This document shows, piece after piece, positions 1-8,679 of a stretch of 64,000 nucleotides of DNA. Under the pieces are notes generated by a model, which worked only from the letters and a program-made list of their open reading frames with translations, was not told where the DNA came from and did no database searches. The DNA is taken from the NCBI GenBank assembly GCA_005240145.1, contig SBAS01000115.1:4188-68187 (forward strand), given 5' to 3'. Made by a program: the position numbers and the translations under genes. This DNA is from Nitrosomonadales bacterium. GTDB lineage: Bacteria > Pseudomonadota > Gammaproteobacteria > Burkholderiales > SG8-39. Numbering within the stretch: position 1 is the first letter of the stretch; each line of letters starts with the position of its first letter.

Positions 1-3000
1 GTCGACGACGAATTCGCAGCCTTCGGCAGAGGCGAGCAAATTGCCCTGGCGGTCGAAAAACTGGATCGTCGCCACGGCGATGGTGCTGATGCCCAGCGCC
101 ACGGCGATTACCGCGCGGCAGCCGCCCTTCGGAAAGACCGAGACGAACTGGCGGTAGCGCGCGAAGGCGCTGGGCAGCGACGGTGCGCCGCGCTGCGCCG
201 CGCTCCACAGGATCATCATCTGGAAGGCGCTGTCCAGCGCGAGCGGATCGGCGATCCAGGTGCCGCGCAGCGGGTGCGTCATCCACTTGATGGGGGCGGA
301 AGCCGCCTTGAGGATCGCGGCGATGCCGCGCTCGGCGAGGCCTTCGACGCGCTCGATGCCGTGCAGTGCCGCGCCATGGAACAGCACGCCGATCGAGTAG
401 GCGTCGGCGAAGCCGCCGCCTGGAATGTCGACCAGCACCGGTTCGGGCGCGGCGGGCAGGTTTTCGGTGGTGAGAAGCACGTCGGCCTGCGCGTGGAGCA
501 CCTCGCGGCCGAGCCCTTTATCCGAGCCCGTCTGGCTCGTCATGCGCACCGGCACGACATGCAGCTTGTCGCGCGGCGTGGCGGCGCCGGTGCGCAGGCT
601 CACCATGATGGTCTGCCCCGCATCGAGCACGATGCCCTTCAGTACCTTGAAATTGTCCAGGCCATGGAAGGCCATGCCCGGATTGCCGTGCAGCGCGGCC
701 TGCGCCAGCCACTCGACCATCAGCGCGGCGGGCAGCACGGCGCGGCCGTTGAAGACGTGGGATTCGAGGAAGGGCAGCGCTGCGACGCTCACCTCGCGCA
801 CGAAGGCGATGTGGTCGGCGGCGAGAATTTGCACGGGCAGCGGTGCACCGACAGGCGTGGGTCCGAGTGCGAGCACTTCAACGGCATTGCCAGGGACGGC
901 ACCGAGCTCCCGCACGAGAAAATCGGCGCCCGCCGCCGGCTCGATCAGGCCGATGCCTTCCTGCGCGAAGAGCTTGCGCACGCCCTGGGTCGCCATGCCG
1001 CCGTTCCACGGGCCCCAGTTGATCGAGACCACGCGGCAGTCCGGCCGGCGGCGCGATTCGACCTGGGCGAGCTTGTTGAGGACCTCGTTGGCCGCGGCGT
1101 AGTCGACCTGGCCGGTGCGCCCGACGCGGCCGGTGTAGGAGGAAAACAGCGCGATGGCCTTCAACTCATCCTGCGCCAGCGCGGCGAGCAGGCTGCGCAG
1201 CCCCGCCACCTTGGTGCCGTAGACGAGGTCGAACTGTTCCGCGGTCTTGTCTTCGATGCGCCGGTCGGCGAGCACGCCCGCGCCGTGCACCAGGCCGCGG
1301 ATGGCGCCGTGGCGATGGCGCACTTCTGCCATCGTGCGCGCCACCGCCGCGCCATCGCGCACATCGAGCGCGTGATAGAAGGCTCGCGCGCCGGCGGCTT
1401 CGAGCCGGCCGAGCTGCGCGCGTATTTCGCGCCCGGCGATGACTTCGCGGTACTTCGCCTCCACCGCCTTGGGCGAACCGCCGCCGGGCCTTGCGGCAAG
1501 CGCCTTCTTGATGCCGGCTTCGGTCTGCAGGTCCTGCAGCCAGGCCGGTTCGCTTGCGCCGGGCTCGCTGCGGCCGAGCAGGATCAGGGTCGGGCGGAAA
1601 GCGCGCGCGAGCGCGAGCGCCGCCTCGCCGGTGACGCCGCGCGCGCCGCCTGAGACGACGACCACGTCGCCTGGCGCGAACGCGGGTTGGGGGGCGTTGC
1701 GCTCGATCACCGCGACGGCGAGTTCGAGGGCTACGCGCCGCTGCGCCGAGAGGCCGACTTCGAGCGGACCGGCGCGGAACATTTCCGCCACGATTTGTTC
1801 AGCGGCCGCACCCGCGATGAGCGAGGCCGGATCTAGGTCGATTGCCTTGCAATGGACTTGCGGCCATTCATGGCGCGCGGTCTTGAGCAGGCCGGCGAGG
1901 CCGCCGCTGACCGGGTCGCTCTTCGCGCCCGGTGCGCCGAAGCCGAACGCGCCGTCGAGCTTCGAGACCGTGACAAGGACCGCGCCTCCAGCGCTGGCCG
2001 ATTGGCGCAGCGCGGGGCCGCAGCGCTGCAGGAGGCCGAAGGCGTGCCGGATGAAGGCGTCGTCGCTCCCGGCGGCAGGCGCGACGATGACCAACGCAGC
2101 AAGGGATGCGGGGACCTCAGCGGAAAATCCCTGGCGCGGGTCGGCGCGGTGCACCTTGAAGCGCAGCGCACGCAGGCGCTCTTCGATGCGCTCGCAAAGC
2201 TCCGAGCCGTCGTCGCTCAGCCAGACGAGGGCGCCGGCGGGCAGGTTGATTGGTTCCCTGTCATCGATGCGAGGTAGTTCAATCGGGCGGATGATCTGGC
2301 GCAGTACATCACTTGGTGCTTCTGCATGAGCAATCTCGGCAATAACAGCCGGCGCTGCAGGCACCGCGATTGACGTTGCCGGTACGGAGCGCTCGCCGAG
2401 GAGGAAATCGGCGACCTGCTGCAGGGTACGCAGCGTACCGAGGTGCTCGGGCTTGATTTCGGGCGAACCGGGCAGCTTGCCGCGCAGCGCCGCCATGATT
2501 TCGACGCGCTTGATGGAGTCGATGCCCAGGTCCGAGTCCATGCCCATGTCGAGATTGAGCATTTCGACCGGGTAGCCGGTTTTCTCCGCGACCACGGCGA
2601 GCAGGGCTTCGCTGATTGCGGAAGACTGATTTTGTACTTTCGTTTCTTCCGTAACAAAAGTTCTTCCAGCTGCAAGAAACGCGACAACCTGTTCCAGCGT
2701 TTGCAATGTCCCAAGATGCTCGGGCTTGATTTCGGGCGAGCCCGGCAGCCTGCCGCGCAGCGCCGCCATGATTTCGACGCGCTTGATGGAGTCGATGCCC
2801 AGGTCCGAGTCCATGCCCATGCTCAAGTCAAGCATCTCGACCGGATAGCCGGTTTTCTCTGCAACCACGGCGAGCGCGGCGTCGCTGATATCGGATCTCA
2901 GAGCATGGGTTCCCGCTTGCGCGGGAACGACGATTTGAGCGACGGGCGCAATAACGGCAACAGGTGCAACCGCGGCGACAGGCACGATCAACGGCGCTGC

Positions 3001-6000
3001 AGGCATCTGCGTCATCGGCACGCCGCTACGCATCTCGAGCAGCGCCTGGATGCTGCGCCGGGCCGATTCCTGGCCTTCGAGGAATTGCTTGTGCAGCTGT
3101 GCGGTCTGTTCCTGCAGGCGCTGCAGAGCGAGGATGCCGTCCTGCGCCGCATTCAGGGCGGCGGGGGCGGTTGGTGCTTTTGCCATCGTTCTGTTTTCCA
3201 CCGGAACGGGAGCAACAGGCGGGCGTGGCGTCGATGGTGCACGGTAGTTCGCCCCCGAGAGCGGGACGCTCAGCGCGGGCTTGCCGGCGCTGGCTGCCAC
3301 CGCCGGCGGCGCGTTTTCCCATTTCTCCAGCGCGACTGCGTGTCCAAGAGACGCGAGGCGGGCGAGCGCCAGCGCGAGATCAAAGATGCCGGAGCGCTTG
3401 CCGCCCGAGGCATCGAGCGCGATGGTTTCCACCTCGCGGCCGGAGAGGATGGATTGCACCAGGTCGCAGAGCACGTGTCCGGGGCCGACTTCGATGAAGG
3501 TGCGCACGCCGTCGGCGTGCATCGCCTGGACCTGCGCCATGAAATTCACCGGCCGCTCGATCTGGCTGGCGAGAATTTCGCGTGCTTGCTTCGCGGCCTG
3601 GGGATACTCGACGCCGGTCGCGTTGGCGTAGACGGGCATGCTGCCTTTGTCGAAGGCGATCTTTTCGAGCGCCCTGGCGAACGGTGCGCGCGCATCGGCC
3701 ACCAGCGGGCTGTGGAACGCCGCCGACACCTGGAGCATGCGGCTGCGTACGGCGCGCTCGGTGAGCCTGGCCAGCGCCCGCTTGATCTGTTCCACCGGCC
3801 CGGAAAGGACGTACTGCGTCGGCGAATTGCGGTTGGCCACCACGAGTTCGCCCGGCTCATCGCGCAGGAAATCCTGCACCGCTTTTTCGTCCGCCTGCAC
3901 GGCGAGCATCGCGCCGCGCTCGCCCGAACCGTTGCCCTCGGCCATGAGGCGGCCGCGCAGGTTGGACAGCTGGTGCAGCGCCGAGGGCTCGATGCGCCCG
4001 GCGCCGCACAGCGCGAGCAGCTCGCCGTAGCTGTGGCCGCAGGCGGCCTGCGCCGCGACGCCGAAATGATTCAGCACGCTGAACGCGCCCATGCTCACCG
4101 CGCCCAGCGCCGGCTGCGCGATGTCCGTGGACTTGAGCGCCTGTTCCTGCTGCTGGCGCGCCTCGTCAGCGAAGACCGGGTGCGGATAGATGAAATCGCT
4201 CAGCCGTTGGGTACCGGAGTGTTCCTGCGAGAAGGCCGCGCGCTCGCGCGCGAAAATCGCGTCGGCCTCGGCGAGCGCCTGCAGCATGCCGGGGAACTGG
4301 CAGGCAAGATCGCGCAGCATCCCGGTGTATTGAGAACCCTGGCCGGGGAAGAGCGCGCCGAGCTTGCCGCGCTGCTTGCCGGAACCGAAGGCGATGCCCG
4401 AGGGCGCAGTCCATGAGGTTTTGCCGGGATTCTTCTCCAGCATCCTGAGCGCGGAATCCATGAGGCCCGCGCGGTCGGATTCCTGCGTCACAACGATGAG
4501 CAGGCGGAATTCGGCGTCGCGGCGGAACTGCGCGCGCGATTCGCGCGCGGCGCGCCTGAAGTCGAGCCAGGCGGCGTCGGCGCGCTGCGCGACGAGCGTC
4601 GCCTTGAGTGCGTCGAGCCGGTCGTGGGAAAGCGCGAGGATTTCGACATCGCCCTCCCAGGCCGCGTCCAGCTTGCCCGCGCCGTGCTCTTCCAGCACGC
4701 AATGGAAGTTGGTGCCGCCAAAACCGAGCGCGCTCACGCCGGCGCGGCGCGGATGCCCCGGCGCGGGCAGCCAGGGGCGCTTGCCGGTGTTGACATAGAA
4801 CGGCGAGCGGCCGGGCGCGGCCTCCTCGATGGGCTGCTTGACCTTGATGGTGGGCGGCAGGACCTTTTCGTGCAGCGCCATCGCCGCCTTGATCATCCCC
4901 GCCACGCCCGCAGCGGCCTTGGTGTGGCCGATCTGGGATTTCACCGAGCCGAGCGCGCACCAGCTGCCGCTCGGGCGCGCGGCGCGGAACACGTCGATGA
5001 GCGAGGAGAGTTCGGTCGCGTCGCCGACCTTGGTGCCGGTGCCATGGGCTTCGATGAGGCCGATGGTCTCGGGCGGCGTTCCGGCGTCCGCGTAGGCGCG
5101 CTCGAGCGCGAGCTTCTGGCCGCCGGCGCGCGGCGCGTAGATGCCGCTGGAGCGCCCGTCGCTGGAAGAACCGATGCCCTTCAGCACCGCGTAAATGCGG
5201 TCGCCGTCGCGCTCGGCGTCGGCCAGGCGCTTGAGCACCAGCAGGCCGAGGCCTTCGCCCAGCACCGTGCCGTCGCAATCGCGATCGAACGGCTTCGCAT
5301 CGCCCGTGGGCGAGAGCGCCGGCGTCTTGCTGAAGCACATGTACATGAAAATGTCGTTGAACGTGTCGACGCCGCCGGTGATGACCATGTCCGAGCGGCC
5401 CGCGGCGAGCTCGAGGCTGGCGAGGTGGATCGCGGCGAGCGAACTCGCGCAAGCCGCGTCGACGACGCAATTGGTGCCGCCCAGGTCGAAGCGGTTGGCG
5501 ATGCGGCCCGCGGCAACGTTGCCCAGCAGCCCCGGAAAGGAATTCTCCTGCCAGCCGACGTAGGAGTCCGCGATGCGCTGGACGACGTCCTCGGCCACGC
5601 CGGCGTCCACGCCGGCGTCCTTCAGTGCGCGGCGCCAGATCGGATGGCCGAGGCGCGCGCCGAGCGGAATCACGAGTTCCAGCGCGCCGGTGACCCCGAG
5701 GATGACGGCCGTGCGATCGCGGTCGAACTTGCGGCCCGCGGGTTTCCCGCCCACGTTGCCGATGGCGTAGCCGGCGTCGGCGAGCGCGCGCTGCGCGGCA
5801 ACGAGGCTGAGCAGCTGCGAAGTGTCGGTCGCCTCGATGTCTTTCGGCGCGATGCCGAACTCCATCAGGTTGAAATTCACCGGCGCGAGGAAGCCGCCGC
5901 TTTGCGCGTAAGTGCGGTCGGGGGATTTCGGATCGGCGTCGAAGTACTCCGCCGCGCTCCAGTGCGTGGCAGCGGGAACGGGCGTAATCGCATCGACGCC

Positions 6001-6096
6001 GTTCTTGATGTTCGCCCAGTACGCCTGCAGGCCGTCCGCCTTGGGAAACAGGCAGCTGATGCCGACAATGGCGATGGGACTCGTTTTATTGCTCAT
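1..6096 (-). CDS. pfaA: PfaA-like iterative type I PKS / PUFA-synthase subunit (KS-AT-ACP-ACP-KR-DH), 3' end truncated by the window edge
   Basis: Manual translation from ATG 6096 (MSNKTSPIAIVGISCLFP) stays open to position 1 (2032 codons, no stop, so absent from the ORF track). Motifs: KS DAACASS, EAHGTGT, KSQIGHTKAAAG; AT GHSYGE and AFHS; two ACPs DLGIDSIKRVEI; KR GGARGVT and YAAAN; DH HVFNGRAVLP and DSAFQ. Confidence 0.92.
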   Translation of the reverse strand, partial: MSNKTSPIAIVGISCLFPKADGLQAYWANIKNGVDAITPVPAATHWSAAEYFDADPKSPDRTYAQSGGFLAPVNFNLMEFGIAPKDIEATDTSQLLSLVAAQRALADAGYAIGNVGGKPAGRKFDRDRTAVILGVTGALELVIPLGARLGHPIWRRALKDAGVDAGVAEDVVQRIADSYVGWQENSFPGLLGNVAAGRIANRFDLGGTNCVVDAACASSLAAIHLASLELAAGRSDMVITGGVDTFNDIFMYMCFSKTPALSPTGDAKPFDRDCDGTVLGEGLGLLVLKRLADAERDGDRIYAVLKGIGSSSDGRSSGIYAPRAGGQKLALERAYADAGTPPETIGLIEAHGTGTKVGDATELSSLIDVFRAARPSGSWCALGSVKSQIGHTKAAAGVAGMIKAAMALHEKVLPPTIKVKQPIEEAAPGRSPFYVNTGKRPWLPAPGHPRRAGVSALGFGGTNFHCVLEEHGAGKLDAAWEGDVEILALSHDRLDALKATLVAQRADAAWLDFRRAARESRAQFRRDAEFRLLIVVTQESDRAGLMDSALRMLEKNPGKTSWTAPSGIAFGSGKQRGKLGALFPGQGSQYTGMLRDLACQFPGMLQALAEADAIFARERAAFSQEHSGTQRLSDFIYPHPVFADEARQQQEQALKSTDIAQPALGAVSMGAFSVLNHFGVAAQAACGHSYGELLALCGAGRIEPSALHQLSNLRGRLMAEGNGSGERGAMLAVQADEKAVQDFLRDEPGELVVANRNSPTQYVLSGPVEQIKRALARLTERAVRSRMLQVSAAFHSPLVADARAPFARALEKIAFDKGSMPVYANATGVEYPQAAKQAREILASQIERPVNFMAQVQAMHADGVRTFIEVGPGHVLCDLVQSILSGREVETIALDASGGKRSGIFDLALALARLASLGHAVALEKWENAPPAVAASAGKPALSVPLSGANYRAPSTPRPPVAPVPVENRTMAKAPTAPAALNAAQDGILALQRLQEQTAQLHKQFLEGQESARRSIQALLEMRSGVPMTQMPAAPLIVPVAAVAPVAVIAPVAQIVVPAQAGTHALRSDISDAALAVVAEKTGYPVEMLDLSMGMDSDLGIDSIKRVEIMAALRGRLPGSPEIKPEHLGTLQTLEQVVAFLAAGRTFVTEETKVQNQSSAISEALLAVVAEKTGYPVEMLNLDMGMDSDLGIDSIKRVEIMAALRGKLPGSPEIKPEHLGTLRTLQQVADFLLGERSVPATSIAVPAAPAVIAEIAHAEAPSDVLRQIIRPIELPRIDDREPINLPAGALVWLSDDGSELCERIEERLRALRFKVHRADPRQGFSAEVPASLAALVIVAPAAGSDDAFIRHAFGLLQRCGPALRQSASAGGAVLVTVSKLDGAFGFGAPGAKSDPVSGGLAGLLKTARHEWPQVHCKAIDLDPASLIAGAAAEQIVAEMFRAGPLEVGLSAQRRVALELAVAVIERNAPQPAFAPGDVVVVSGGARGVTGEAALALARAFRPTLILLGRSEPGASEPAWLQDLQTEAGIKKALAARPGGGSPKAVEAKYREVIAGREIRAQLGRLEAAGARAFYHALDVRDGAAVARTMAEVRHRHGAIRGLVHGAGVLADRRIEDKTAEQFDLVYGTKVAGLRSLLAALAQDELKAIALFSSYTGRVGRTGQVDYAAANEVLNKLAQVESRRRPDCRVVSINWGPWNGGMATQGVRKLFAQEGIGLIEPAAGADFLVRELGAVPGNAVEVLALGPTPVGAPLPVQILAADHIAFVREVSVAALPFLESHVFNGRAVLPAALMVEWLAQAALHGNPGMAFHGLDNFKVLKGIVLDAGQTIMVSLRTGAATPRDKLHVVPVRMTSQTGSDKGLGREVLHAQADVLLTTENLPAAPEPVLVDIPGGGFADAYSIGVLFHGAALHGIERVEGLAERGIAAILKAASAPIKWMTHPLRGTWIADPLALDSAFQMMILWSAAQRGAPSLPSAFARYRQFVSVFPKGGCRAVIAVALGISTIAVATIQFFDRQGNLLASAEGCEFVVD
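2401..2886 (-). repeat. Tandem ACP-domain repeat (2 copies, 273-nt period)
   Basis: The two ACP cores match at 55 of 59 residues; 2751-2821 and 2478-2548 are identical over 71 nt. Confidence 0.95.
2905..2931 (-). repeat. REP-like palindrome (GTCGTTCCCGCGCAAGCGGGAACCCAT) read in frame in the PKS linker
   Basis: Perfect 8-bp stem GTTCCCGC/GCGGGAAC (2909-2928) with a 4-nt loop; translates as VVPAQAGTH, resembling widespread TTCCCGC-N4-GCGGGAA extragenic palindromes. Confidence 0.6.
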
Positions 6097-6106
6097 GGCT
6101 TGCTCG

Positions 6107-7471
6107 TCATGCTGTCAAAAACTGGCGCAGCTGCGTCGCTGCGCCCTGCATCAGGTTCTCGGCGACCACCACCACGCGCCGGTTTTCCGGCTTTTCGAGG
6201 AAGCTGCCGCGCGCCCATTCGTTGAAAGCCCCCATCGCCGGACCGCACCAGACCTGGTAATCCATCTGGCGCGATGATTCGCCGGCATTCGCCCAGCGCG
6301 AACTCAAGCCGAGGTAACTGCGGAAAACCAGCGCCATCCGGTGCTTTGGATCGCGCTCGGCGCGCTCGACCTGCGCCGCGTCGCGCTCGAGGAAAAACCG
6401 CCTCGTGTCGCGCCAGGCCTCGTCGACCGTGGCACGCAGAAGTTGCTTTTCAATGAAAGCCTTATCCGCTTCCGGGAGCGTTTCCAGGCCCGCGTTTACC
6501 CGGTACAGATCATACAGCTTGGCAGCACGCATTGGGAACATCGTGCCCCGCTTGAGCACCTGCACCCGCACCCCCATTTCGAACATGTCCGCCGCCGGCG
6601 CCATGGCCACATCGGCCTGTTCCGCCTGCGCCAGCATCTGGCGCACCAGATCAGAGCTTCCCGACTCGACGCAGGCCTGGTTGACGGTGCCCGTGAGCAC
6701 ATAGGCGGCGCCCATCGCGAACGCCGCTGCCAGCCCCGCCGGGGTCGCCAATCCACCCGCCGCGCCCACGCGCAATGGCTGGTCATACCCATTTTGGGCC
6801 TGCATCCGGTCACGCAAGGCGAGAAGCGTCGGGAGCAAGGTCACGAGCGGGCGATTGTCGGTGTGACCGCCGGAATCGGCTTCCGCCGTCACGTCCTGCG
6901 CCATCGGGATGGTCGCCGCGAGCGCTGCCTGCTCGGAAGTGATTTCCTTCGCGCCTACCAGTTCGTCGAGGAACTCCCGCGGCGGGGGCGAGAAGAACTG
7001 CGTCGCGACTTCGACGCGCGAGACCTTGGCGACGATGCGGTTGGGCGCGACGACGCGGCCTTCGGCATCGCGCTTGATGCCGCTCACCCGGTAGCGCACG
7101 ACCGGCAATGTCAGCCGCAGGTAGGCCGAAGCTTCGACCAGGCGGATGCCGCGGCGCAGGTACAGATCCACCACCTGCGCTTCGAGCTCCGGCTCATTGG
7201 GACTGTGAATCAGGTTGAAGCCGTAGGCCGCGCCCGCAACCGTGCCCGCCAGCTCGTCGATCGCGGCCTCGATGCGCGGAAGGTCCAGGCCCGCGGCGCC
7301 GAAAAAACTCAGCATGCCGGCGCGCGCCATCTCCGCCACCAGGCGGGTCGAGGCGATGCCGTTGGCCATCGCGCCTGCGACATAGGCGTAGCGCACGCCA
7401 TGGTCGCGGCGGAATGCAGCGTCGCCCAGATTCTCCGGCTTGAGCGAAGGAATGCCGGCGGCCGCGTTCAT
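6107..7471 (-). CDS. pfaD: PfaD-family FMN-dependent enoyl reductase (about 454 aa)
   Basis: Motifs AGAMANGIAS, FGAAGL, EADSGGHTDNRP, APAADMFEMGV, YQVWCGPAMGAFN. Start placed at ATG 7471, which overlaps the upstream stop (ATGA); the longer track ORF (to 7765) extends into the neighbouring gene. Confidence 0.9.
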   Translation of the reverse strand: MNAAAGIPSLKPENLGDAAFRRDHGVRYAYVAGAMANGIASTRLVAEMARAGMLSFFGAAGLDLPRIEAAIDELAGTVAGAAYGFNLIHSPNEPELEAQVVDLYLRRGIRLVEASAYLRLTLPVVRYRVSGIKRDAEGRVVAPNRIVAKVSRVEVATQFFSPPPREFLDELVGAKEITSEQAALAATIPMAQDVTAEADSGGHTDNRPLVTLLPTLLALRDRMQAQNGYDQPLRVGAAGGLATPAGLAAAFAMGAAYVLTGTVNQACVESGSSDLVRQMLAQAEQADVAMAPAADMFEMGVRVQVLKRGTMFPMRAAKLYDLYRVNAGLETLPEADKAFIEKQLLRATVDEAWRDTRRFFLERDAAQVERAERDPKHRMALVFRSYLGLSSRWANAGESSRQMDYQVWCGPAMGAFNEWARGSFLEKPENRRVVVVAENLMQGAATQLRQFLTA

Positions 7472-8679
7472 GCGGCGGCCTGAGCGGCCCCTGCAGCGAT
7501 GAGTTGTTCGATCACGCTCTCGGCGAGCCCGGCTTCGCGCAGCACCTCGCGCGTGTGCTCGCCCAGGCGCGGCGCGTGGCGCCGGTATCCGGGCGAGGAT
7601 TCGGACCACTCGGATGGCACCGCCATGCTGCGGATGCGGCCTTCGCTCGGGTGCTCGACTTCGCGGAAGTAGCCGATCGCGGCGAGGTGCGGATCCTCGA
7701 CGATGTCCTGCAGGCTGTTCATGCGCTGCACCGGAATGTCGGCAGCCTCCAGCGCCGCGATCCACTCGGCGGTGCTGCGCGTGCGCATGGCTTCGGCAAC
7801 GAGGCGGTTGGAATCATCGAAATTCTGGCTGCGCGCGGTGGGCGTGGCATAGCGCGGATCGGACAGCAGTTCGGGCTTGCCGATGAGCGCAAAGAACGCG
7901 CGCCATTGCTTGTCGTTGTAGACCAGCACGCAGACGTAGCCATCTTTTGTCGCGTAGGGCAGGCGCTCCGCCGCCAGCATGCGAGCGTAGCCGATGGGCC
8001 CGGGTTTTTCATCCGCTCCTGCCACGTAGGTGTAGCCGCCCATATGCTCGCCCATCACGGTCTGCAGCAGGCTTTCGAACATCGGCACGTCGATGCGCTG
8101 GCCGCGGCCGCTTTTCTCGCGCCTGTACAGGGCCGCACACACCGCGTTGACGATATGCAGGCCGACGGTGCGATCGGCCATCGTCGCCGGCACATAGCGC
8201 GGCGCTTCCGCGCCGGATTCCTTCAGGAGCCATGGCATGCCGGCCGCGCCCTGGATCAGGTCGTCGTACGCGGCCTTGGCGGCGTAGGGCCCGCGCTGCG
8301 AATAGCCGAAGGCGCCGACGTAGATGATGCGCGGATTCACCGCGCGCACCTCGTCATAGCCCAGCTTCAGGCGCGCCATCGCCTGCGGCCGGATGTTGTA
8401 GACCAGCACGTCGGCAAGTTTGGCGATGGCGAGGCAGGCTACGCGGCCCGCGTCCTTTTTCAGGTCGAGCACCACCGAGCGCTTGTTGCGGTTGGCGTTC
8501 ATGAAAATGTGGCCCATGCCCCTGGAGCGCAGCGGCGCGTTGTGCCGCATCACGTCGCCCTCGGGCGACTCGAGCTTGATGACGTCGGCGCCGTAGTCGC
8601 CGAGGATCTGGGTCGCGAACGGACCCATCACCACGGAGGTGAGGTCGAGGATGCGTACGCCGTCGAGCGGTCCGCTCAT
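7468..8679 (-). CDS. CaiB/BaiF family III CoA-transferase
   Basis: N-terminus GPLDGVRILDLTSVVMGPFATQILGDYGADVIKLE, NRNKRS, AAYD motif, C-terminal APRLGEHTREVL. Confidence 0.92.
   Translation of the reverse strand: MSGPLDGVRILDLTSVVMGPFATQILGDYGADVIKLESPEGDVMRHNAPLRSRGMGHIFMNANRNKRSVVLDLKKDAGRVACLAIAKLADVLVYNIRPQAMARLKLGYDEVRAVNPRIIYVGAFGYSQRGPYAAKAAYDDLIQGAAGMPWLLKESGAEAPRYVPATMADRTVGLHIVNAVCAALYRREKSGRGQRIDVPMFESLLQTVMGEHMGGYTYVAGADEKPGPIGYARMLAAERLPYATKDGYVCVLVYNDKQWRAFFALIGKPELLSDPRYATPTARSQNFDDSNRLVAEAMRTRSTAEWIAALEAADIPVQRMNSLQDIVEDPHLAAIGYFREVEHPSEGRIRSMAVPSEWSESSPGYRRHAPRLGEHTREVLREAGLAESVIEQLIAAGAAQAAA

Follow-up and report, generated by a model that had tools for sequence, protein, structure and literature searches.

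A predicted Geobacter-type pfa-ole hydrocarbon cluster in an island-like insertion of an uncultured groundwater Burkholderiales bacterium

The stretch of DNA analysed here (the window, 64,000 nucleotides) covers bases 4188–68187 of contig C90 in a metagenome-assembled genome (MAG) of 3.24 Mb and 130 contigs. The host is an uncultured groundwater Burkholderiales bacterium (a betaproteobacterium), and the public runs in which nearly all of the stretch was found are metagenomes of groundwater. The left end of the window carries the first two genes of a lipid cluster of approximately 20.6 kb, whose biosynthetic genes share one strand and which reads pfaD, pfaA-like (pfa2), pfaBC-like (pfa3), an IS91 fragment with vapBC, oleA, oleB, oleC, oleD and a phosphopantetheinyl transferase (PPTase) gene. 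The cluster is split over C90 and a second contig of the same MAG, C6, and window positions 1–7471 hold approximately its first third. Judged from its genes, it is a complete and apparently functional pfa-ole hydrocarbon cluster of a type that has already been published. The features are listed in Table 1.

Domains were called with Pfam, and families were placed with NCBIfam models and their curated cutoffs. The pfaD protein matched TIGR02814 over its full length (649 bits, cutoff 449; model positions 2–442 of 444). With the ATG at 7471 as start, the family-model match begins at model position 2. A longer version of 552 aa, starting at a GTG at 7765, adds nothing but an Arg/Pro-rich stretch overlapping the upstream gene. 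The stop codon of pfaD and the start of pfa2 are separated by 10 nt. Homologues in MAGs of Betaproteobacteria are already named PfaD-family proteins in public annotation.

The pfa2 protein is 2048 aa long in full. From the ATG at 6096, 2032 aa are open up to the window edge, and the last 16 codons and the stop lie to the left of it (51 nt, C90 4137–4187), so that the whole open reading frame (ORF) covers C90 4137–10283. A stop or frameshift just past the window edge was excluded by this normal end. Pfam found a ketosynthase (KS), an acyltransferase (AT), two PP-binding domains as acyl carrier proteins (ACPs), a ketoreductase (KR) and a dehydratase (DH) of the polyketide synthase (PKS) type, and the protein scored 1480 bits against TIGR02813 (omega_3_PfaA; cutoff 1010). 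Family cutoff, domain order and catalytic residues identify pfa2 as a PfaA-type synthase subunit. An earlier note on this stretch had described such a minus-strand ORF of more than 2032 aa with intact KS, AT, two ACPs, KR and DH, directly preceded by a PfaD-like enoyl reductase (ER), and had assigned it to the Pfa-type secondary-lipid synthases. Every motif that it listed was found in its place, and both family models support the assignment. The ORF track had indeed missed pfa2, but the gene is not hidden. It was left out as a window-edge effect, because ORFs running off the source are omitted by the lister unless open ends are requested.

Table 1. Features of the pfa-ole cluster and its right flank. 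Positions are those of the window unless C6 is given; aa, amino acid residues.
Feature	Position	Strand	Evidence
pfaD (pfa1), enoyl reductase of the PfaD family (454 aa), opens the cluster	6107..7471	-	TIGR02814; Pfam NMO and FabD_helical_ins
pfaA-like (pfa2), KS-AT-ACP-ACP-KR-DH	1..6096	-	Pfam; TIGR02813
pfa2 KS	4687..6081 (aa 6-470)	-	PF00109, PF02801; Cys216 (DAAC), His351 (HGTGT), His391
pfa2 AT, malonyl type	3448..4353 (aa 582-883)	-	PF00698; GQGSQ, GHS with Ser689, AFHS at 793
pfa2 tandem ACPs	2401..2883 (approximately aa 1072-1232)	-	PF00550, two stretches; LGIDSIKRVEI twice, Ser1103, Ser1194
pfa2 KR	1003..1662 (aa 1479-1698)	-	PF08659; Tyr1666 in YAAAN
pfa2 DH, PKS type	10..819 (aa 1760-2029)	-	PF21089, PF14765; His1780 in HVFNGRAVLP (HxxxGxxxxP)
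pfa3 C-terminus, FabA-like domains, nothing further	C6 2-2074		domain search
IS91-family (Y2_Tnp) transposase fragment	C6 2280-2972	-	domain search
vapB-type (MazE/AbrB-fold) antitoxin	C6 3118-3339		
vapC toxin, PIN domain	C6 3336-3746		
OleA	C6 3750-4790		PRK09258; PDB alignment
OleB-like alpha/beta hydrolase, haloalkane-dehalogenase-like	C6 4795-5685		fold and position between oleA and oleC
OleC	C6 5660-7330		olefin beta-lactone synthetase models; PRK09274
OleD	C6 7306-8316		2-alkyl-3-oxoalkanoate reductase model
Sfp-type PPTase	C6 8313-9035		ACPS and 4PPT_N
Family III CoA-transferase, right-flank chromosomal gene outside the cluster	7468..8679	-	PF02515

The third gene, pfa3, is co-oriented with pfa2 and overlaps its end. 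C90 89–4147 encodes a KS, a chain length factor (CLF, a KS-like domain without the Cys), an AT and the first part of a FabA-type DH. The best solved relative in a PDB search was 6RIW (E 8e-114), which we take to be the KS-CLF didomain of Moritella PfaC. In genomes of the same genus, pfa3 is approximately 2050 aa long, and the genes after it encode a FabH-like protein, an alpha/beta hydrolase and an AMP ligase. A tblastn search with these same-genus proteins located the missing pfa3 C-terminus at the start of C6, with FabA-type DH domains (motifs HF..D..MPG and HFHQDPVVPG), followed by the same genes. C90 and C6 share an exact overlap of 22 bp, located on C90 just before its final 88 bases, and past the overlap the pfa3 reading frame goes on in C6 with the expected CGRIPTCIAVEAGQADLFLSGYLGIDF. 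An independent contig of 1910 bp from the source runs spans C90:89–1500 and C6:1–41 with a depth of approximately 14 on both sides, and at C90:89, the loose end, it reads the exact C6 sequence. Because the overlap, the continued frame and the bridging contig at equal depth agree, pfa3 is read as continuous across the break, a single intact gene of approximately 2036 aa with the predicted order KS-CLF-AT-DH-DH.

Bases 1–88 of C90 were unsupported by the independent contigs and disrupt the pfa3 frame within the first FabA-type DH, so that the last 30 residues of pfa3 as read on C90 are out of frame. These terminal bases look like an assembly artefact, and a frameshift in pfa3 at the C90 end was rejected, since the garbled 30 aa stem from them. 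Within pfa3, C6 base 228 is G in the independent contigs of both source runs and T in the MAG, which reflects strain variation or else an error in the consensus. A domain search found no C-terminal 1-acylglycerol-3-phosphate acyltransferase (AGPAT) in Pfa3. The protein stops right past the second FabA domain and has no match to an acyltransferase family there, as was also seen in a same-genus genome, G018 (G-numbers denote genomes and L-numbers denote loci or contig stretches that were compared).

The C6 half continues with the ole genes. OleA scored 477 bits against PRK09258 (cutoff 285) and aligned over its full length with 3ROW and 4KU5, its best PDB matches (E 5e-55), which we take to be OleA of X. 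campestris. In the printed alignment, Cys123, Glu97, the His and Asn303 are all four conserved, and they presumably correspond to X. campestris Cys143, Glu117, His285 and Asn315. The OleB-like hydrolase is kept at the same place in the relatives compared below, and the presence of OleB distinguishes olefin clusters from beta-lactone natural-product clusters. The top match of OleC was PRK09274 (754 bits, cutoff 478), followed in second and third place by the olefin beta-lactone synthetase models, and a PDB search with OleC returned generic adenylating enzymes only. For OleD, the 2-alkyl-3-oxoalkanoate reductase model ranked first. The conserved synteny supports the orthology of both proteins. 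The PPTase is likewise kept at the cluster end in relatives and is the predicted partner of the pfa2 ACPs.

Between pfa3 and oleA lies a spacer of 1.67 kb that holds the IS91 fragment and vapBC. The spacer is real, because an independent source-run contig of 12.8 kb reads across it and matches C6 38–5000 with one base difference. The vapBC pair is co-oriented with the ole genes, and 3 nt lie between its end and the start of oleA. In MAGs of two other betaproteobacterial species (L013 and L014), the vapBC wedge recurs at the same place with 82–85% nucleotide identity. G018 and L012 are without it, and their oleA directly follows pfa3.

To find relatives, one genome per prokaryotic species was scanned with the pfa3 C-terminus, and the 80 best loci were kept. 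Over this region, MAGs of Betaproteobacteria/Burkholderiales from lakes and groundwater had 71–85% identity, Verrucomicrobiota 68–73%, and Geobacterales/Desulfuromonadales 58–65%. The last group includes cultured organisms, namely Geotalea sp. SG265, Geobacter sp. AOG1, Pelotalea chapellei, Geomonas sp. Red32, Geomobilimonas luticola, and Pelovirga terrestris. Planctomycetia, Elusimicrobia, and KSB3 were also represented, and no recognisably myxobacterial genome was among the 80 best matches. All cluster proteins were then compared with the kept loci by local tblastn. In almost every sufficiently long locus, pfa2-pfa3-oleA-oleB-oleC-oleD was colinear, often with the PPTase gene in addition, and such loci came from Betaproteobacteria, Verrucomicrobiota, Geobacterales/Desulfuromonadales, Planctomycetia, and Elusimicrobia. 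PfaD gave one strong match in each of the 10 genomes searched, and in both genomes whose coordinates were compared (Geobacter sp. AOG1 and Geotalea sp. SG265) pfaD lies just upstream of the pfa2-pfa3-ole locus. Some of the lake bins (L017, L019, L013, L025) bear ill-fitting species names in their record titles: 'Bordetella parapertussis', 'Akkermansia muciniphila', 'Nitrosovibrio sp. Nv4', and 'Opitutus sp. GAS368'. These names do not fit uncultured bins and are therefore nearest-taxon labels only in that data set.

The closest characterised cluster is that of Geobacter (Citrifermentans) bemidjiensis. Strain Bem produces hentriacontanonaene (C31:9), and its genes pfaD, A, B, C, oleA, B, C, D and pfaE stand in tandem (Yoshida et al. 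2016, PMC4882568). It shares with the host the ER-first order, the fused KS-CLF-AT-DH2 protein, oleABCD directly downstream and the trailing PPTase gene (PMC4882568, PMC3098273). G. bemidjiensis is an anaerobic metal reducer, whereas the host is a groundwater Burkholderiales bacterium, in which the IS91 fragment and vapBC are wedged into the string. Other cultured Geobacterales (Geotalea, Geomonas, Pelotalea chapellei, and Geobacter sp. AOG1) have a colinear string like that of the host, and the identity between Geobacterales and host proteins is approximately 44–51% for Pfa2, 58–63% for the Pfa3 C-terminus and 59–64% for PfaD. The nearest relatives outside the Betaproteobacteria are clusters of Verrucomicrobiota (MAGs of Opitutaceae and Limisphaerales), with the same string, 68–73% identity in the Pfa3 C-terminus and 74% in PfaD. 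They belong to another phylum than the host, and the closest ones are all uncultured. Opitutaceae bacterium TAV2, as Sukovich et al. reportedly found in 2010, makes C31:9.

In the Type I systems of Shulse and Allen, ole genes are often linked to the synthase genes, and the synthase was proposed to supply olefin precursors (PMC3098273). Shewanella oneidensis and Photobacterium profundum have both enzyme systems and the proposed chemistry in which a 16:4n-3 chain from Pfa goes through OleA to C31:9 (PMC6463001). In Shewanella, Photobacterium, and E. coli, OleA draws the 16:4n-3 acyl directly from the ACPs of the Pfa synthase (Allemann et al. 2019, PMC6463001). These marine systems differ from the host in their pfaA-B-C-D order, separate pfaB and pfaC, and a PfaA with four to six ACPs. 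Their pfa and ole operons are unlinked or merely adjacent, they also make eicosapentaenoic acid (EPA) or docosahexaenoic acid (DHA), and a pfaT thioesterase gene is associated with them, whereas none was seen in the host cluster.

In myxobacterial synthases for polyunsaturated fatty acids (PUFA), the ER comes first, followed by KS-AT-ACPn-KR-DH and KS-CLF-AT-DH-DH. The host shares this order with the pfa1-pfa2-pfa3 clusters of Sorangium and Aetherobacter. What marks out myxobacterial Pfa3 is an AGPAT domain at its C-terminus, which the host Pfa3 lacks; the ole genes come next instead. The ER-first order, which the earlier note had taken as myxobacterial, is thus shared with that group but not specific to it, and the nearest clusters are those of Verrucomicrobiota and Geobacterales.

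We propose that the cluster is a Geobacter-type pfa-ole cluster that makes a long head-to-head polyunsaturated hydrocarbon (probability approximately 0.8). An olefin is preferred to a membrane PUFA as product because the gene order matches the published C31:9 cluster and oleABCD follow pfa3 in the same direction. Hydrocarbon was one entry in the earlier open list of products (PUFA, hydrocarbon, glycolipid or polyene precursor), and the list now narrows to it. The other expectations voiced then agree with the data: a PfaB/C-like partner was found just left of the window as a KS-CLF-AT-DH2 gene, and the PPTase that was sought lies at the cluster end. None of the findings that the earlier note had named as telling against its own reading, such as a lack of partner or PPTase or a stop or frameshift past the edge, was made.

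For the chemistry and the exact product, we infer the following route by analogy with the systems above. The Sfp-type PPTase would prime both PfaA ACPs, and the AT domains would load malonyl units. The chain would be extended iteratively by the KS and KS-CLF domains, while the KR, the PKS-type DH, the FabA-type DH/isomerase and the PfaD ER would act selectively. This would give a cis-polyenoyl-ACP with methylene-interrupted double bonds, probably 16:4n-3 as in Shewanella. OleA would join two such chains, probably taken straight from the ACPs, by head-to-head Claisen condensation. OleD would then reduce the beta-keto acid, OleC would close it to a beta-lactone and OleB would decarboxylate this to the olefin. 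The end product, a neutral membrane lipid, would most likely be C31:9 or a close polyunsaturated analogue, and exactly C31:9 is favoured by a little over even odds.

The surroundings of the cluster bear on its origin and on the contig join. On the right flank, the TGA of the CoA-transferase gene overlaps the pfaD ATG (ATGA, window 7468–7471; the junction was read directly). An ortholog of this gene was present in 10/10 same-genus genomes, pfa-bearing or not, and the idea that it is a cluster member feeding acyl-CoA to OleA was rejected on this ground. Its membership was further ruled out by G018, where it is on a separate contig from pfa, and by the pfa-less genomes, where it adjoins the alpha/beta-hydrolase gene. 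The overlap with pfaD seems to have arisen incidentally from where the insertion occurred, and not as a functional pairing. That alpha/beta-hydrolase gene lies at the far end of C6 (11962–13086), and its ortholog is within approximately 110–180 bp of the CoA-transferase gene in three pfa-less species (85–91% identity). The two genes stand further apart in two other species, by 3.1 kb and 9.5 kb of other DNA. The interval was compared across five contig stretches (L092–L096). Because the flanking genes are near-adjacent in pfa-less species, the pfa-ole cluster is, by this comparison of gene order, part of an insertion of approximately 23.5 kb at a variable site, which also contains a TctC gene and a PhnD-like gene. 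The interval may be an integration hot spot. The flank synteny also gives independent support for the C90–C6 join. One other genome (G008) probably holds the pfa-ole island at the same site; the CoA-transferase side alone was seen there.

Several points weigh against the hydrocarbon reading. OleC reached 678 and 673 bits with the olefin beta-lactone synthetase models, whose equivalog cutoffs are 900 and 850, and OleD reached 437 bits with its first-ranked model, whose equivalog cutoff is 580. Because of these scores, both are regarded as divergent members. The PfaA has two ACPs only, chain length and double-bond number cannot be read from the sequence, and the same synthase could feed some PUFA into phospholipids too. 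The IS91 fragment and vapBC could uncouple the transcription of the two halves, no RNA run was among the runs holding the stretch, and the organism is uncultured. A strict PUFA synthase, whose main product is a long-chain PUFA of the EPA, DHA, arachidonic acid or linoleate type in membrane phospholipids with the ole genes as a minor branch, would fit the PfaA and PfaD family models, and marine bacteria form PUFA and C31:9 with one synthase (PMC6463001, PMC4882568). It is unlikely, however, with a Pfa3 lacking the AGPAT domain and so few ACPs in PfaA. Moreover, nearly all relatives have the ole genes joined to the pfa genes in a single string, and the closest characterised cluster, identical in order, was reported for C31:9 (PMC4882568).

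A polyunsaturated hydrocarbon other than C31:9, differing in chain length or unsaturation, would follow if the Burkholderiales acquired a Verrucomicrobiota-type pfa-ole island in which the two-ACP PfaA and a divergent OleA set the product; vapBC would then be retained as an addiction module or internal promoter that keeps the island stable and drives it. We regard this version, whose hosts would be uncultured groundwater and freshwater Burkholderiales that are probably aerobic or facultative, as doubtful. It is still less probable that the island is decaying or silent, with the IS91 fragment and vapBC cutting the ole genes off the pfa promoter so that no final product is formed. A transposase remnant and a toxin–antitoxin pair do occupy the spacer and the distribution within the genus is patchy, yet each of the nine biosynthetic ORFs has its full length and keeps its catalytic residues intact. 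Read-through or a promoter of its own could drive ole from the co-oriented vapBC, and the retention of the wedge in the two other betaproteobacterial MAGs argues for a stable arrangement. Very little speaks for the view that the pfa and ole halves come from different organisms and were joined by a binning or assembly artefact. The halves do lie on separate contigs of a 130-contig MAG, and C90 ends in 88 bases that are out of place. Nevertheless, the break is spanned by an independent contig of matching depth, the gene is intact on a single contig in relatives, and the far end of C6 bears the very gene that adjoins the CoA-transferase gene in pfa-less relatives.

The origin of the proposed Geobacter-type pfa-ole cluster was addressed with a maximum-likelihood tree built from the C-terminal part of pfa3. 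In this tree, the sequences from Betaproteobacteria group in a single clade (SH-aLRT 86), and the clade nests among Verrucomicrobiota (98 and 99), with Geobacterales across the midpoint root. As pfa3 nests among Verrucomicrobiota sequences, the cluster appears to have been acquired horizontally, and the tree suggests transfer from a Verrucomicrobiota-like donor. Confidence in the donor is moderate because the tree covers one domain region and followed a quick search.

Where some PUFA-like lipid was predicted before, the expected product is now a specific one, a polyunsaturated olefin formed head to head, most likely C31:9. So far, marine Gammaproteobacteria, Geobacter, Planctomycetes, and Verrucomicrobia have been the groups for which the pfa-ole supercluster was discussed; it appears to circulate also among uncultured Betaproteobacteria of groundwater and lakes, as a mobile island. 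This matters for where the polyunsaturated hydrocarbons in lipid surveys of subsurface and freshwater sites come from, and for how secondary-lipid pathways spread horizontally. Betaproteobacteria are unmentioned in the survey of Shulse and Allen (PMC3098273), and a literature search on hentriacontanonaene with Burkholderiales or Betaproteobacteria found nothing relevant. Within the searchable literature, the betaproteobacterial host is the one new element. High novelty is unsupported because the architecture is published for G. bemidjiensis (PMC4882568) and matches the ole-linked Type I (PMC3098273). The novelty is modest and concerns the lineage of the host, the structure of the island and the vapBC pair wedged into it; the island opens no new mechanism.

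True PfaD orthologs (at least 85% identity) were found in 4/24 other species of the genus, which makes 5/25 with the host. In an order sample of 401 genomes, PfaD orthologs of approximately 78% identity were present in one other genus only. Seven more Burkholderiales genomes (G061, G071, G125, G279, G329, G367, and G390) had distant PfaD-family genes only (43–53%), which probably belong to different PfaD-containing PKS or trans-AT systems. Several of the distant genes sit in longer frames of 786–1368 aa, and one of them has an in-frame TGA.

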